Source of the DNA: a virus
Taxonomy: Duplodnaviria; Caudoviricetes
Virus record (IMG/VR): IMGVR_UViG_3300014204_000139
Coordinates: 1 to 64,000 of that record
Strand: one strand, 5' to 3'
Length of the DNA: 64,000 nucleotides
The notes under the pieces are model-generated. The model searched no databases. It was given only the letters and a program-made list of their open reading frames with translations, and had not been told where the DNA came from. A program made the translations under genes and the position numbers. Below are positions 28,721-44,089 of the stretch, one piece after another (position 1 is the first letter of the stretch; the number at the start of each line of letters is the position of its first letter).

Positions 28721-28957
28721 TTATGCAATAATTTCTGCAAACTTATCTCGAACTCTCTTTGCATACTCCATTGCTTCTGTGTTACTTTTATTTTCAGATT
28801 CCAGTTCAGCAATTTTTTTCAGGTTTTCTGAAGTACCTGCCTCAATAACTGCAATATTTTCATTAAATGAGTCCACAATACCAGAAACCTTTGACACCAA
28901 ACCATTAATCTTATTTTTAGCACTCTCAACTGAATTCCCGGTGAAGTTAATATTCAT
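28721..28957 (-). CDS. Small coiled-coil protein
   Basis: ATGA overlap with the rtcB stop. Confidence 0.65.
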   Translation of the reverse strand: MNINFTGNSVESAKNKINGLVSKVSGIVDSFNENIAVIEAGTSENLKKIAELESENKSNTEAMEYAKRVRDKFAEIIA

Positions 28958-31305
28958 CTTTCTTCTTTCTCCTTATTATTTTTCTTTTTCCAAGGTTTTT
29001 CGTCTGATACATCTTTCATGTTATGAATTGGAATAATCCTATCCAGAATTTTTGCTGTTGGTTCTATAGCTTTTTCAATTATATTTGAATCTTTATATGC
29101 ATCAGGAGATTCATCAATTGTACCTCTACCAACTGACGTTGAATAAATTCCTTCCATATCTTTTTCAAATTTTTGTAGATCTAATTCCTCCTTAGCTTTT
29201 GATCTGGAATAAACTCTTCCTGCACCATGTGGTGCTGAGAAATTCCATTCTGAATTTGACTTTCCTTCACAAATTAAAATTCCGTCTCTCATATTAAAGG
29301 GAATTATCATTTTTTCCCCAATATAAGATCTTATTGCACCTTTTCTAATTATGTAATCTGTTGAATCTATATAATTATGAACAGTTTCAATTGTTTCTTT
29401 TACTTTAAAGTACTTTTCATATACAGTTTCTCTTAAAACAGAGATAATAGTTTGCATTATAATACGTCTGTTAGTAGAAGCATATTCTTGAGCAAAATAC
29501 ATATCTGAAAGATAACCATCCAAATCTTTACCTTTAAGATAATCCAACTCGCTTTTTTTAGTTGATCCTATTTTATTTTTTGCTTTTACTATTTCTTCTT
29601 GCCACTCTTTTTTAGGAAATTTTTCTTTAATTTCTAAAATTATTTTATTTATATCCGGGAGCGGTCTTTCATAGGCTATATTCTGCCAATATTCACAAAT
29701 CTTTTTACCTAAATTTCTTGATCCTGAGTGAATAGTAACCCAAATATTACCTGTATTTTGTGATTCTCCTAATTCTATGAAATGATTCATTTTTATCCCA
29801 TAGCCTTTTATTTTTTGTTCACATTACGGCTATAGATGGACTATCGCATCACCAAAATTATGGTGTTCTCTCGCTTAGTCTCTCACGGTACAATATTATA
29901 AAAATATTGCTTCCGCCCTGTCGTCCATGTCTGGACTTCCAAGTCAATCAGAGAGAATTTCAGATTAAGGTCTGGAGGCAACCAGTTTACCACCACCTAA
30001 ACTACCTAAAGAATAAACTGCATAATCAAAATCAATTCCTACTCTTTTACACAAAACTTTCACATCTGATGATAATCTTATTTTCCCTTTTTCATTAACA
30101 TTTATCCCAAAAGGGATTTTTTCTCTTATACCTTCATCTAAGCTAACATGATTAATAGTTAATTTTCCAACATTAAAAGATAGCATTCCACAATTATGAA
30201 CGAAAACTCCTGCTGACAAAGCAAAGTTGTGATATTTTTCTACTTGTAAACAATAAACATCTTCTTTATAATCTAATTTTTTAATAGATAAAACTTTATG
30301 ATTATTTATTATTTTATTACATGCCTTTTTATGTCTACCAAAACTACCTTTTCCCTTTATTCTTCTTCCACATTCACATTCAAAGATTTCTTCATTATTA
30401 AGATATTTAGATCCTCTTTTACCATTGTCTTTAAAATCTTCTTTCCATTTTCCTGAATTCATATAATCAGAAATATTTTTCTTTGCTACTTCTTGTTTTT
30501 TTTCTAAAAATTTTGGATTAAAATATTCACCTTTTAGATCCATTTTTAATTTCTTTTTTTCTTTAAAATCTTCTGTTGTAAAATAATTTCTTTGAGTAGC
30601 AGTAATTGAACAATGTTTATTTTTTGTTAAATATTCTATATTTTCTGGTGTATTATTATACCAACAATCATCTTTGTGATGAGTATGATAATCATATGGT
30701 CTCTTGCCATATAAAAATTCTCCAATAACATGATGTGTAGCTATTGGTTTTTGTTTTCCAGTTGAAACATGTTCATATCCATCTCTTGATTCATATGTTC
30801 TATATAATGGCATTAAACTATCTTTAATTTTTAAATCTTTAGCTTCTTTATAATTTCCATCAATTAACATAAATAATTGGTCAGGTGTGCATCTGATTAC
30901 TTCTCCACCACTAATTATTATTTCATATAATTCTGAATTTTCTTTAGTTTTAATTGCAGTTGCTAAACCAGGAACTATTTTTAAATTTTCATCTAATGAG
31001 TAGACATAGAATATTTTTTCAACTAAGTTAATTAAACTCTCTTGAAAACCATTCAATAGCGGAATTTTTGTAGATCCAACGAAACATCCGATATCTACCC
31101 CAACAACGTTGGGAACTAATTTATTTCCAACTTCCATTGTAAATCCAATTACAGATCCTTTACCAGAATGACAATCTGGCATAATAGATACAGGATTTGT
31201 AAAAGCTTCATGATTGATCATTTGAATTATTTGAGACATACAATTTTCATCAACTTGATCAATCATTATTTTTGCTTTTGTATATTTACCAGAATATTCA
31301 ATCAT
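28954..31305 (-). CDS. rtcB: RtcB RNA ligase; exons 31305-29989 and 29787-28954; contains an intein; mature protein about 418 aa
   Basis: MPDCHSG, VGVDIG|CGM, SLGSLGGG|NHFIE, HSGSR, HNY, SAPHGAGR, DESPDAYK motifs. Confidence 0.93.
29788..29988 (-). mobile_element. Group I intron, 201 nt, no homing endonuclease ORF
   Basis: Removal restores GGG-NHFIE in frame. The 5' exon ends in U and can pair with GCCUCC (P1, U-G wobble). GAGACUAA and GAUAGUCC (P7) are present, and the intron ends in G. Confidence 0.92.
30193..31086 (-). mobile_element. Intein, 298 aa, with an HNH-type endonuclease region
   Basis: Starts CFVGST, ends HNFALSAGVFVHN before Cys+1; internal HHKDDCWYNNTPENI...H. Confidence 0.93.
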
Positions 31306-36610: not shown

Positions 36611-36681
36611 TGGTAGTCGTGGGAGGATTTGAACCTTCGACCTGTCGCTTATAAGGCATCTACCTACTGAGCTACACGACT
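36611..36681 (-). pseudogene. Degenerate tRNA, Ile(UAU)-like, with a deletion between the D and anticodon stems
   Basis: Intact acceptor stem, T arm and ACCA; about 5 nt missing; loop CTTATAA. Confidence 0.7.
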
Positions 36682-36877: not shown

Positions 36878-36917
36878 ATGAGAGAGTGATAATCGACCAG
36901 AATTATCACTCTCTCAT
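36878..36917. terminator. 16-bp perfect hairpin between convergent units
   Basis: ATGAGAGAGTGATAAT/ATTATCACTCTCTCAT. Confidence 0.75.
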
Positions 36918-36933: not shown

Positions 36934-37197
36934 GGAACCAGAGAATATTGTAAAACTCCAAATAGCAGCTGGGAGTTGTTAAGATGCTGAGAGATGCACA
37001 ACTCGAATCCAGATTTTTCCAATGTCTTTAACCATAACTCTTAAGTCTTGTGTTACCCATTATTTTATCAGTCGGGTTAACTGTCAGTCTTGAACCATTA
37101 GTCCTTAGTCTTGGTTTTCTTTTCGCGCCATATTGTGATTAAATAATAATCTAATAATCGCACCCATTAACCCGAGGATACAGGGGCTCTCAATTCC
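36934..37197 (-). ncRNA. 264-nt structured ncRNA candidate with two 4x7-nt repeat blocks
   Basis: Ends pair (GGAAUUGAGAG/UUCUCUGGUUCC, G-U pairs on the minus strand); internal stems; heptamer blocks at 37113-37086 and 37050-37023. Confidence 0.7.
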
Positions 37198-37229
37198 TTA
37201 CTTTTACACTACCGAAGTCTTATTTTTAG

Positions 37230-37466
37230 GAGCGAGGAGTATTTTCTTTTAGCAAAGTATTTTAATAGGAACTCCTTCTGCTCGAATACTTTTTTGAAAA
37301 GCGAGTGGTATATTTCTGGAATGATTTATAGGAACCACTTATGCTTTTTGAATTTCAAAAGGCGGAAAGTATTTTCAATTTAATAGGAACTTTCTATGCC
37401 GATTTTATGTTAATATAGCGAGGAGTATGTCATCACCCAAGATTTTAATAGGAACTCCTTCTGCTA
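37230..37466 (-). repeat. Array of four covarying RNA hairpins (37230-37283, 37297-37348, 37361-37400, 37416-37466)
   Basis: Shared GC-AKA-stem-UCCUAU(U)AAA-variable-U-stem-C-GC layout with compensatory stem changes. Confidence 0.85.
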
Positions 37467-37498
37467 ATTCTTAAACTAATAGATTACTTTATTGTATA

Positions 37499-37505
37499 TT
37501 TGTTC
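37499..37505 (-). promoter_or_regulatory. GAACAAA promoter motif pointing into the hairpin array
   Basis: TAGAACAAATATA on the minus strand about 35 nt upstream of the first hairpin. Confidence 0.55.
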
Positions 37506-37576
37506 TATAAAATTTTGAAATAAACTAAAAATTAACTAGAAAAAATAGAAATATTATTGCATAAGTACTAAAAAAA

Positions 37577-38101
37577 TTATTCTACTATATCAGTGGTTGC
37601 ATTTAACATTTCCAGATGAGCATCAATGTAATCAAATTTCATCTGCAGGTCTTTTAGAGAATTATTTTTAAAATCTTCATCGTATAACTGAATTGATTGA
37701 GCTCTTGATCCATCTGAATTCAGTTGAATTGATTTTAATTTGTTTTCTGCAACTACCTTATTTAGAGCTACAAATAATGTACAGTATTCTTTATAATTCA
37801 TTTTAAACATTAGAGCTTCTGCGATTGAAATTTCATGTTCTTGAGTCACAACACCTTTTGGAATTCTTAATTTTGTATTGATGTTTGTCTTATCAATCAT
37901 TACTTTTAATTTTGCTCTTCTTTCTAATAGATCTATTCCTGATTGAATTAGTCGAAGAATATGTTCCCTTTGAGTTTTTTCTGAATCAAATGCTGGTTTT
38001 TCAGTTGATGTTAATGATGAATACTTTTGAATTTCTTGAGTCACTCCTGCTACTTTCTTTTGATTTAACTTCTTTTCTTTTAAAGCTTCAATCATCTTCA
38101 T
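37577..38101 (-). CDS. DUF6847/DIP1984-like coiled-coil protein
   Basis: MKxxEAL...IDKTNxxT...SIAEAL...ID..L...NATT pattern recalled for that family. Confidence 0.7.
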   Translation of the reverse strand: MKMIEALKEKKLNQKKVAGVTQEIQKYSSLTSTEKPAFDSEKTQREHILRLIQSGIDLLERRAKLKVMIDKTNINTKLRIPKGVVTQEHEISIAEALMFKMNYKEYCTLFVALNKVVAENKLKSIQLNSDGSRAQSIQLYDEDFKNNSLKDLQMKFDYIDAHLEMLNATTDIVE

Positions 38102-38149
38102 AAGTCTTAAATCTCTCCTTATTATATTATAGGATTATAAATAATCCTT

Positions 38150-42112: not shown

Positions 42113-44089
42113 ATGAATGTAAGTCCTGGTGTTTATAGTAAAATAATTGATATATCTGATTATGTTCAATCTGTACCTAGTACAATTGGTTGTTTAATGG
42201 CTCTAACTAAAAAAGGAAAAGATAATCAATTTAGCTTTGTAGGGAGTCGTTCTGAGTTAATTTCAGGATGGGGTGAACCAAACATCAATGATTACGGAAA
42301 AAATTATGGACAGGGATTATATGAAGCATATAACTTTTTAGGTGAATCTGGTGCTCTTTATTTTATGAGATGTTTACCAGATGATGCTACATTCGCTTGT
42401 ATTAGAATAGATGCTAGTTTAGCTCCAGCTGATTCCACTGCAGCAATTTCAATTAGTTATGTTGATAGTTTAAACACAATTGATGAAATCAAAACGGGTT
42501 TAGCAACTGCAGGAACTACTTTTCCATTATGTATGTTATATCCAATAGGAAGAGGTGAATATTACAATGCAATTTCTATTAGATTAACAGAATACTCTAA
42601 TCCAATGGTTAATGGGGTTTATGTATTAGATATTTATGAAAAACAATCAGATGGTGATGATGTAATTATAGAATCATTTGAGGTTTCTTTTGATCCAAAA
42701 GCAGTTGATAGATCTGGAGATTCAATTTTTATTGCTTATATTTTAGAAACATACTCTTCAATTCTTAGATGTGAAATGGTTTTAGCTAGTGGAGATTACA
42801 CTAGTGGTTATAATCTTGTTAGTAGAATTTATGATAAAGATATTGGTACCGTTTCTATTGTTGAAACCGCAGCTTCAGCAGAAATAATTGATAACAAACA
42901 ATTATTCACAGATTGGGAAAATAGTGGTGAAACAGGTAATGCAACATACATGGTAATTGCAAAAGATGCAAAAGGTAATTCCATTTATGGCTGGTTAGGT
43001 CAGGCTACAGGAACAGATAATGATAGAATCAATGTTTGGGACGGAAGAAATTTATCTACTGCATCAAGAGGATGGATAGGAGATATTACATTATTTGATA
43101 ATTCAAGTATAATTACTTATGAAATTAAAAAATCTAATACTTCAATAACTGATGCATTTATTTCTTCAACACCAGTTCCATTTAAGAAAGGAACAGATGG
43201 TACACTTCTAGATTCAGTTGGAAGTTTGGATACTACGGTTGCAACCCAAGTTTTAGCAGAAGCATATGCAGGAACATTAATAAATCCAATTACTGGATTA
43301 GTTGAAGATTTAATTACCGATACAGAAAATGTTTATTTTAGTATGGTTTTTGATGCTGGTTATCCTGCAAGTGTTAAATCACAAATTTCAACTCTAGTAC
43401 AAACCAGAAGAGATTGTGTTGCTATTATTGATAATGGTGATAATGCAACATATAACTTAGCAATTTCTGCTAGAAATAATACTAATACATTTAATAACTA
43501 CTATACTGCTATTTATGAATGTTATAATAAAGTGTATGATATCTTTACAGGGCAGGATATTTGGGTTAGTCCAATTTACCATATGTCTTATATTCTTCCT
43601 AGAAATGATAGTGTTAGTGAATTATGGAATGCTGCTGCAGGATTTAATAGAGCTTCAATAGATACAATTAAAGAATTAAGATATAATGCTAAGGTTGGTC
43701 AGAGAGATGGTTTTTATTTAACACAACTTAATGATATTGTTAAGTTTAGTTCTGGTTATGTTGTTTGGTCCCAGTTAACAAGTCAAGCTAAAGCTTCTGC
43801 AATGCAAGATTTAAATATAGTTCGATTAGTTTTATATTGTAAGAGAAGTCTTGAGAATTTTGCTAAATTTTATATATTCGAAATGAATGACCAAATTACA
43901 TGGAATAAATTTAATAATGAAATAGTAGGATTTCTTGAAGATGTTAAAAGAAGAAGAGGTTTATACTCATATAGTACAGACACATCTGCAACTGCATATG
44001 AAAGAAAAACAAAAACCTTCCATTCAAATATTATTTTAGAACCTACACGTACTACAGAGCAAATTAAATTAAACTTTTATGTTAAATAA
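42113..44089 (+). CDS. Tail sheath protein
   Basis: SPGVY N-terminus, RRDCVAIID, WNAAAGFNR, LNIVRL, FEMND. Confidence 0.92.
   Translation: MNVSPGVYSKIIDISDYVQSVPSTIGCLMALTKKGKDNQFSFVGSRSELISGWGEPNINDYGKNYGQGLYEAYNFLGESGALYFMRCLPDDATFACIRIDASLAPADSTAAISISYVDSLNTIDEIKTGLATAGTTFPLCMLYPIGRGEYYNAISIRLTEYSNPMVNGVYVLDIYEKQSDGDDVIIESFEVSFDPKAVDRSGDSIFIAYILETYSSILRCEMVLASGDYTSGYNLVSRIYDKDIGTVSIVETAASAEIIDNKQLFTDWENSGETGNATYMVIAKDAKGNSIYGWLGQATGTDNDRINVWDGRNLSTASRGWIGDITLFDNSSIITYEIKKSNTSITDAFISSTPVPFKKGTDGTLLDSVGSLDTTVATQVLAEAYAGTLINPITGLVEDLITDTENVYFSMVFDAGYPASVKSQISTLVQTRRDCVAIIDNGDNATYNLAISARNNTNTFNNYYTAIYECYNKVYDIFTGQDIWVSPIYHMSYILPRNDSVSELWNAAAGFNRASIDTIKELRYNAKVGQRDGFYLTQLNDIVKFSSGYVVWSQLTSQAKASAMQDLNIVRLVLYCKRSLENFAKFYIFEMNDQITWNKFNNEIVGFLEDVKRRRGLYSYSTDTSATAYERKTKTFHSNIILEPTRTTEQIKLNFYVK

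Follow-up and report, generated by a model that had tools for sequence, protein, structure and literature searches.

The DNA considered here, referred to as the window, is a stretch of 64,000 nucleotides that makes up the first 64 kb of a 95.6-kb virus record in IMG/VR (IMGVR_UViG_3300014204_000139). CheckV puts the completeness of this record at ~28%, and the record is therefore a fragment of a jumbo phage. On the minus strand, the window carries a gene (37577-38101) for a 174-aa, helical protein of the DUF6847/DIP1984 superfamily and, downstream of it, a structured non-coding RNA of ~270 nt that contains two blocks of regularly spaced AAG triplets (Table 1). Together, the gene and the RNA probably represent an undescribed protein–RNA particle. 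The pair is located at the upstream end of a minus-strand tRNA and RNA-repair block, which comprises 11 or 12 tRNA genes between 25 and 37 kb (tRNA-Lys among them), the RNA ligase RtcB, two metallophosphoesterases and a cytidylyltransferase-like gene.

The 985 nt that follow the 174-aa open reading frame (ORF) contain no ORF of at least 40 aa on either strand. The RNA found there is bounded by a closing stem, P1. From its 5′ end, an H-type pseudoknot (PK1) and a variable region lead to the first AAG block, a middle hairpin separates the two blocks, and a 3′ domain with the stems P3a and P3b follows the second block. A first-pass annotation, made from the sequence alone, had described an RNA of 264 nt, close to the length found here, with paired ends, the internal stems GAGUUG/CAACUC and CUGG/CCAG, and two registers of four 7-nt units set 63 nt apart around a hairpin. 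All of these elements are present on the minus strand, where the paired ends correspond to P1, and the loop of the hairpin also pairs downstream to form a second H-type pseudoknot (PK2). Rfam detects only tRNAs in the window and nothing on the RNA, even at E ≤ 10, and neither Rfam nor ARAGORN finds a tRNA-like domain or a transfer-messenger RNA (tmRNA) within 36952-37221.

Table 1. Coordinates of the gene, the RNA and associated features (window positions unless another record is named)
Feature	Position	Strand	Basis or description
Gene for 174-aa helical protein, divergent DUF6847/DIP1984 superfamily member	37577..38101	-	ORF, profile links, 3KDQ fold
UAAGACU unit, same as RNA heptamer	38102-38125	-	Single unit abutting the AUG of the gene
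Four tandem ~50-nt hairpin units	37231..37465	-	Repeats; starts 63, 55 and 65 nt apart
Whole structured non-coding RNA, ~270 nt, bounded by closing stem P1	36952..37221	-	Conserved; follows the gene homologue in 13 distinct loci
P1, 5′ strand	37208..37221	-	Pairs with 36952-36969; 14 pairs
P1, 3′ strand	36952..36969	-	Covariation
Pseudoknot PK1 (H-type)	37159..37187	-	Two stems
PK1 stem 1	GCCC 37184-37187 with CGGG 37171-37174	-	Near-invariant
PK1 stem 2	Loop UGUAUCC 37176-37182 with GGGUGCG 37159-37165	-	Strand-swap permutation
Variable region, predicted hairpin	37114..37158	-	Length and sequence vary among relatives (alignment A4)
AAG block 1: CAAGACU, AAGGACU, AAUGGUU, CAAGACU	37086..37113	-	Four ~7-nt units, unpaired in the consensus fold
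Middle hairpin and PK2	37055..37083	-	Covariation, permutation
Middle hairpin stem	CAGU 37080-37083 with ACUG 37069-37072	-	4 pairs, all with compensatory change
Pseudoknot PK2 (H-type)	Loop ACCCG 37073-37077 with UGGGU 37055-37059	-	Spans a conserved AUAAAUA-type linker
AAG block 2: CAAGACU, UAAGAGU, UAUGGUU, AAAGACA	37023..37050	-	Four ~7-nt units, direct repeat of block 1
Conserved UUGGAAAAAUC segment, then 3′ domain with P3a, P3b and inner hairpin UGC...GCA	36969..37022	-	Covariation
P3a, CUGG/CCAG	37008-37011 with 36969-36972	-	Covaries in relatives
P3b, GAGUUG/CAACUC	36999-37004 with 36973-36978	-	Covaries in relatives
Perfect 16-bp hairpin, 8-nt loop	36878..36917	-	~35 nt past the RNA; candidate 3′ end or terminator-like element
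tRNA-Ile(UAU)	36611..36681	-	Next gene downstream, same strand; ~270 nt past the RNA
T5.085 and following gap, phage T5	43063-44143 of the T5 record (23064-24144 of L221)	-	AAG scan, profile comparison

The two blocks (37113-37086 and 37050-37023) are direct repeats that agree at 22 of 27 positions, with starts 63 nt apart. When the 991-nt gap was shuffled 300 times with its dinucleotides preserved, the best pair of 27-mers reached at most 21 of 27 (mean 18.3, standard deviation 0.9). Each block contains three exact AAG triplets and one degenerate unit. Taken in the window alone, exact AAG triplets at a spacing of 6-8 nt are unexceptional, and lysine-rich coding regions score equally high; the folding energy of the RNA region is likewise unremarkable (minimum free energy z = -1.58 against shuffles). 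Since these single-sequence measures do not stand out, the case rests on comparison with relatives, and the significance of the RNA comes from the repeat pair together with that comparison.

Close homologues of the gene come from six loci, of which four are distinct, and in each of them the stop codon is followed by a conserved element of ~280 nt that matches 36947-37227 of the window. With nhmmer, the RNA was also found at loci with a protein identity of only 31-35%, for a total of 13 distinct sequences (alignment A4). In all 13 of these close and mid-distance homologues, the RNA lies directly 3′ of the gene, starting 3-55 nt past the stop codon in the relatives. The segment GGAAAAAUCUGG is identical across the five closest relatives. 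RNAalifold folded the 13 sequences into a consensus of 28 pairs, 20 of which show compensatory changes. P1 is paired in 92.9% of cells, compared to 73.5% in shuffled alignments, with compensatory changes in 10 of its 14 pairs and a covariation score of 0.692 versus 0.295, a value reached by none of 500 shuffles; controls in which the strands were slid paired in 37-50%. The middle hairpin, P3a and P3b together gave 90.7% of cells paired versus 70.4%, and a covariation score of 0.578 versus 0.210 (0 of 500 shuffles; slid controls 30-49%). P3a and P3b are each 89-94% paired, with three compensatory pairs apiece.

The pseudoknots were spotted by eye and evaluated with a purpose-written script that compares the complementarity of a strand to its own partner with that to partners swapped between sequences. 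For stem 2 of PK1, the mean match was 5.58 with the own strand and 3.93 with swapped strands, and for PK2 the values were 4.92 and 3.30; in both cases, none of 5000 permutations reached the observed value. Stem 1 of PK1 hardly varies and thus provides no evidence from covariation. The RNA is therefore real and structured. The consensus fold leaves the blocks unpaired, and conservation inside them is limited to the AAG triplets: in block 1, the AAG of unit 4 is invariant among the 13 sequences and those of units 1 and 2 are at least 90% conserved. The first-pass annotation had taken the heptamer to be the repeated unit. What is conserved, however, is the triplet rather than the heptamer, and its spacing in the wider family is 7 or 8 nt.

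When the gene is masked, the nhmmer search settles at 16 loci, and remoter RNAs are linked to these by weaker covariance-model matches and by their shared architecture. A pattern search with two anchors returned no viral contigs beyond the two known before and none in genome contigs, and a search with the bare 14-mer TTGGAAAAATCTGG was unspecific (118 matches, mostly due to chance).

Linkage between the gene and the AAG array was followed further in 79 viral loci collected by a search with an alignment of 69 sequences, in which the proteins are 22-35% identical. By a loose score that requires, within 120 nt, at least six AAG triplets spaced 7 or 8 nt from a neighbor, a periodic array is present on the gene strand in 61 of the 79 loci and on the opposite strand in none, usually 100-400 nt after the gene. 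The strict two-block pattern (four AAG in each block at a spacing of 7-8 nt, with at most one mismatch per block) is found in ~40 of the 79 on the gene strand and never on the reverse strand. Across 57 arrays, the spacing between triplets is 7 nt in 179 cases and 8 nt in 127, while the flanking bases vary. A covariance model built on the 150-nt core from block 1 to P3 matched the gene strand only, in 22 loci; one iteration brought this to 23, of which 17 were new (E < 0.1). The RNA is thus genetically coupled to the gene. The absence of such an RNA from homologous genes had been named in the first-pass annotation as the result that would speak against it; this search was made, and both the 13 homologues and the majority of the distant loci carry the RNA or its array. 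Proteins encoded next to the pair in the window were found by tblastn in the close relatives only, not in the distant loci. The conserved unit is therefore the gene–RNA pair itself, and, as judged from these sequence comparisons, the two travel as a two-part module.

A scan for AAG triplets in the tRNA region of phage T5 (NC_005859) flagged the gap that follows T5.085, a gene annotated as “tail fiber protein”. When T5.085 was compared with the family profile by hhalign, it matched with a probability of 88% (E = 3e-6) over 51 columns at the conserved QS..DL...TN.T segment. The 440-nt gap after it has P1-like complementary ends and periodic AAG triplets, outlining an unannotated element of ~340 nt on which Rfam, including the RAGATH-27 model, gives no match at E ≤ 1. 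T5.085 and this element are probably the T5 counterpart of the gene–RNA pair, in which case the annotation of T5.085 is probably wrong as well. Such a counterpart makes the hypothesis testable in a standard laboratory system.

The window protein itself is a divergent member of its family. It has no Pfam match at E ≤ 1 and does not reach the gathering score of PF20935 (DUF6847; 27 bits), nor was a match to PF20935 obtained in a six-frame search of the whole record. Against the NCBIfam model NF038048 (DIP1984_fam), it scores 18.8 bits (E = 0.0014), below the cut-off of 70, in a full-length match of residues 2-171 to positions 1-148 of 149. A single-protein search of viral contigs with the window protein found nothing, and tblastn against GenBank phages with either the window protein or a central family member gave no match. 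Metagenomes hold 15 homologues that are 57-74% identical to it. A profile of 16 close homologues retrieved 381 clusters (at 50% identity) with E ≤ 1e-3, nearly all of ~170 aa and matching from end to end. Among 69 diverse relatives detected in this way, 26 match PF20935 (best E = 1.8e-9) and 39 match DIP1984_fam (best E = 3.6e-10). Besides their length, the family members share a TN motif near residue 72 and an LE..NA.T motif near the C-terminus. The best match of the window protein in PHROG is phrog_1491, labeled “tail fiber protein”, which is probably a mis-annotation.

The structural evidence leads to the same family. A profile search of the PDB gave 3kdq (E = 0.018), which is the crystal structure, with four chains, of a Corynebacterium diphtheriae protein of no known function. 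The AlphaFold model of the window protein (pLDDT 96.9) has 3KDQ as its sole whole-chain match in Foldseek, with a probability of 1.00 and a TM score of 0.55-0.63, and VIA aligned the two over 149 residues with a Z of 11.6. Beyond 3KDQ, the fold search returned only generic helical hairpins that cover the N-terminal helical hairpin. Because the relatives match the profiles and the 3KDQ fold is shared, the window protein belongs to the DUF6847/DIP1984 superfamily as a remote homologue. The assignment to DUF6847/DIP1984 in the first-pass annotation thus stands at the superfamily level, but not at that of the curated families, as the window protein falls below both thresholds.

Self-association of the protein is supported by a four-copy structure model, which reached an ipSAE of 0.70 compared to 0.00 for the best control, with a run-to-run contact agreement of at least 79% and a partner pLDDT of at least 85. 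The mark of 0.70 is reached by 20 of 30 proteins that were solved as pairs and by one of 23 solved as single chains. The oligomer that the first-pass annotation had envisaged is consistent with this model, in which the interface scored is that of a dimer.

Pairs of AAG triplets also occur near the start of the gene. AAG-N4/5-AAG is found within 24 nt upstream of the start codon in 19 of 75 family genes and in 8 of 177 control ORFs (Fisher p = 4.5e-6, an optimistic value, since the loci are related), and the enrichment arises partly through the AAGGAG Shine–Dalgarno sequence. These pairs hint that the gene may regulate itself.

Many of the distant loci have a tRNA, as called by Rfam and ARAGORN, in the interval from the gene to AAG block 1. 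Across the loci L144-L202, these tRNA-like elements lie ~50-400 nt past the DUF6847-like gene, and their anticodons would be uncommon in genuine tRNAs: att, aat, act, agg, unassignable, or of two or four bases. A tRNA or tRNA-like element is present on the gene strand within 1 kb of the gene in 35 of 60 loci and on the opposite strand in none. In one locus (L156), inspected by eye, the closing stem encloses both the tRNA and the arrays, and another (L186) has a sub-threshold match to the Y RNA-like RNA YrlA (43.7 bits against a gathering score of 69). In the clade of the window, which has no tRNA-like match, PK1 and the variable hairpin occupy the place of the tRNA module. As a separate observation, ARAGORN calls a tmRNA with the tag ANPDLALQAA at 1306-1661 on the plus strand of L167, ~340 nt upstream of the DUF6847-like gene. 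This is either a phage-borne tmRNA or a misread knotted RNA with a tRNA-like module.

The reading favored here, with moderate confidence, is that the gene and the ~270-nt RNA act together as a phage ribonucleoprotein (RNP). The RNA is closed by P1, and its 5′ pseudoknot, central hairpin–pseudoknot and two-helix 3′ domain would keep the scaffold rigid. This scaffold would display two single-stranded tracks of four AAG triplets each, ~7 nt apart, to be read by the self-associated DUF6847-like protein, with one triplet per subunit or per dimer, so that one or two protein oligomers might be presented in a fixed geometry. The DUF6847 protein is the most economical candidate for the ligand because of the exclusive coupling between gene and RNA, the predicted self-association and the AAG-N4/5-AAG pairs at the start codons of the family. 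As to function, the tRNA cluster, the tRNA-like modules of the relatives, and RtcB and the phosphoesterases on the same strand weakly suggest, in analogy to Ro60 and its Y RNAs, that the pair is involved in the biology of tRNAs or of RNA damage while the phage infects its host.

Several observations weigh against this reading. Two of the eight units in the window RNA do not contain AAG (AAU and AUG instead). Among the 79 distant loci, 18 have no array at the threshold of the loose score, and in ~13 loci the array is upstream of the gene instead of downstream. The ribosome-binding site of the window gene does not have an AAG pair at the 7-8-nt spacing. The window protein contains no recognized RNA-binding domain, and its sole structural relative, 3KDQ, has no known function. 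The family is not basic overall (median pI 6.8), with the window protein at 8.8. The interface scored in the model is a symmetric dimer and not a tetramer, and the self-association result may be owed in part to the predictor having learned the four-chain 3KDQ crystal. The link to RtcB and RNA repair is one of distance, 6-8 kb, in a single window; RtcB was not found within 2 kb in the other loci, except for one with RtcB/intein-like fragments.

A different division of labor, in which the RNA alone serves as a decoy or sponge for a host factor, is possible but doubtful. The DUF6847 protein would then be co-expressed as a chaperone or an independent effector rather than as a ligand, and the AAG tracks and, in relatives, the tRNA-like module would titrate a target that could be an RNA-binding protein, an enzyme that modifies or cleaves tRNA, or machinery related to tRNA-Lys, as AAG is a lysine codon. 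The tracks are indeed single-stranded and multivalent, like sponges of the CsrB type, the phage has its own tRNA set, including tRNA-Lys, plus the RtcB ligase, and between gene and array, many distant loci have a tRNA or tRNA-like element whose anticodon is odd (att, aat, act, agg). However, no candidate host factor was identified, and the enrichment of AAG pairs at the start of the gene suggests that the protein itself reads AAG. The strict adjacency and co-orientation of gene and RNA over 22-74% protein identity, with no other conserved neighbor, is also better suited to cognate partners. The close spacing to the stop codon in the relatives (3-55 nt) leaves little room for a promoter belonging to the RNA. 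This fits a cis-acting part of the transcript, either a structured 3′ untranslated region (UTR) that stabilizes the mRNA or a scaffold for processing of a downstream tRNA precursor by RNase P, Z or E. The strong hairpin and the tRNA that come after the RNA in the window agree with such a role, and so does the presence, in 35 of 60 scanned loci, of a tRNA or a similar element on the same strand as the gene and within 1 kb of it. Nevertheless, known stabilizers are far simpler than this 270-nt RNA, with its closing stem, its two pseudoknots and its invariant spaced triplets, many loci have no nearby tRNA, and the ~13 upstream arrays do not occupy a fixed 3′ UTR position, making this explanation improbable.

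It is more improbable still, to the point of being hardly credible, that there is no functional RNA and that the repeats act at the DNA level, for instance as iterons or as sites where proteins bind to an origin or a regulatory region, or arose by chance in AT-rich intergenic DNA. The region is AT-rich and repeat-rich, its folding energy is not significantly below that of shuffles, and the periodicity of exact AAG in the window alone is unexceptional. However, compensatory changes in five helices, including two pseudoknots, are the signature of an RNA rather than of sites in DNA, the specificity for one strand is absolute, and the 22/27 repeat exceeds all 300 shuffles. The covariation thus largely refutes this explanation.

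The proposed RNP resembles some well-characterized systems in which proteins read spaced triplets. TRAP, the trp RNA-binding attenuation protein, reads 11 GAG/UAG triplets, 2-3 nt apart, in the trp leader of Bacillus, while HutP recognizes the hut mRNA at two sets of three NAG triplets with 4 nt between them, which amounts to a 7-nt period in two blocks. In both, each subunit of the oligomer reads one triplet. Evenly spaced conserved triplets, variable spacers and single-stranded tracks are features shared with the RNA described here, which has two blocks of four AAG at 7-8 nt, and the two sets of NAG-N4 repeats of HutP are the closest formal parallel. By analogy, this likeness supports a similar mode of action, not membership in either group. 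The window protein has no Pfam match, and neither TRAP nor HutP is among its listed fold matches, of which 3KDQ is the sole whole-protein match. Their targets are mRNA leaders that control attenuation, whereas the RNA here is stem-closed and pseudoknotted, stands alone and has no downstream gene to regulate. Furthermore, binding is inferred here.

Ro60, or Rsr in bacteria, is accompanied by Y RNAs (YrlA), and Salmonella has an rsr-yrlBA-rtcBA operon. As in that system, the protein gene adjoins a stem-closed non-coding RNA, the RNA region of the relatives has a tRNA-like module, and the pair occurs in phages, surrounded by genes for tRNAs and RNA repair, with RtcB on the same strand in the window. 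TROVE proteins with a tRNA-like partner have been described in jumbo phages (PMC7824862). However, the protein partner here is a small helical DUF6847 protein and not a TROVE/HEAT ring, Y RNAs do not have AAG arrays, and the window RNA does not have the tRNA-like module. A search for TROVE (PF05731) gave no match at E ≤ 0.01 in the 95.6-kb record, which covers ~28% of the genome, and the YrlA and Y RNA models gave none in the window at E ≤ 10.

Other comparisons are more distant. CsrB and RsmZ are likewise multivalent non-coding RNAs, in which a short purine motif is repeated many times for CsrA, a small dimeric protein. However, the GGA motifs of the Csr system are located in hairpin loops at irregular spacing and not in linear tracks with a fixed period, the proteins are unrelated, and the genes for the Csr sponge and protein are not side by side. 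The tmRNA shares a closing stem between its 5′ and 3′ ends and several pseudoknots, and the relatives have tRNA-like modules, but the window RNA has no T-arm, CCA end or tag reading frame. The likeness to DIP1984 and DUF6847 proteins, in fold, length and conserved motifs, is to a family without known function. RAGATH-27 (RF03100, threshold 76.1 bits), an orphan candidate RNA motif without known function, was considered and rejected: it has no match on the RNA at E ≤ 10 and none in 15 distant loci at E ≤ 0.1. A 2026 preprint on bacterial tRNA mimics describes other motifs. Literature searches for DIP1984, DUF6847, PF20935, 3KDQ, RAGATH-27 and T5.085 yielded nothing relevant. With no Rfam family, no PADLOC family and no literature found on DUF6847, DIP1984, 3KDQ or T5.085, the gene–RNA pair is probably undescribed.

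If the pair does act as an RNP, it would represent a widespread protein–RNA particle new to phage biology, composed of an RNA that Rfam does not include and a domain without known function; the protein family spans at least 381 clusters at 50% identity, and the RNA signature is present in 61 of the 79 viral loci. It would also provide a first functional handle on DUF6847/DIP1984 proteins, which are often mislabeled “septicolysin” or “tail fiber protein”, and a second, independent example of spaced-triplet reading in the style of TRAP and HutP. The repeated association with tRNA genes and tRNA-like modules directs attention to the contest between phage and host over tRNA integrity. A more far-reaching and rather unlikely version is that the AAG-track RNA and an oligomer of the DUF6847 protein make up a new class of RNP platform with which phages, and possibly cells, withstand attacks on tRNA, and which either decoys host anticodon nucleases or recruits repair enzymes such as the RtcB of the phage. 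Protein-coated AAG tracks would then stand beside a bait that looks like a tRNA or an anticodon loop; in the relatives this bait would be embedded in the RNA, and in the phage studied here it may come from an array of four hairpins between the gene and the RNA. Such a particle would be a functional analogue of Ro60–Y RNA made from unrelated parts.

Each unit of this four-hairpin array consists of a closing (A/G)GC...GC(U/C) stem, an internal loop, a stem of 5-6 bp, a conserved loop start UCCUAU(U/A)AA, and a variable loop. The stems covary between units (GGAGU/ACUCC, GAAAGU/ACUUUC and GUGGU/ACCAC). Neither the relatives nor IMG/VR nor the remainder of the 95.6-kb record contains another such array. 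Mimicry of anticodon loops by the array was tested and is not supported: there is one exact 7-mer match, between unit 4 and the loop of tRNA-Ser GCU, and one with a single mismatch, where ~1 is expected by chance.

On the other side of the RNA, the perfect hairpin at 36878-36917 was not called in a terminator scan, and no U-run directly follows it. Equally strong hairpins of unrelated sequence were seen by eye at the matching relative place in L008, L009 and L010. PADLOC found no defense-system family. A tail sheath gene is located at 42113-44089. Within the repair block, the RtcB ligase is split over two ORFs at 28954-31305 on the minus strand. The upstream ORF (29965-31305) encodes the N-terminus of RtcB and an intein with an HNH endonuclease, and the downstream ORF (28954-29790) corresponds to RtcB positions 154-425. 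The two are separated by a gap of 174 nt, which may be a second intervening element or a break.

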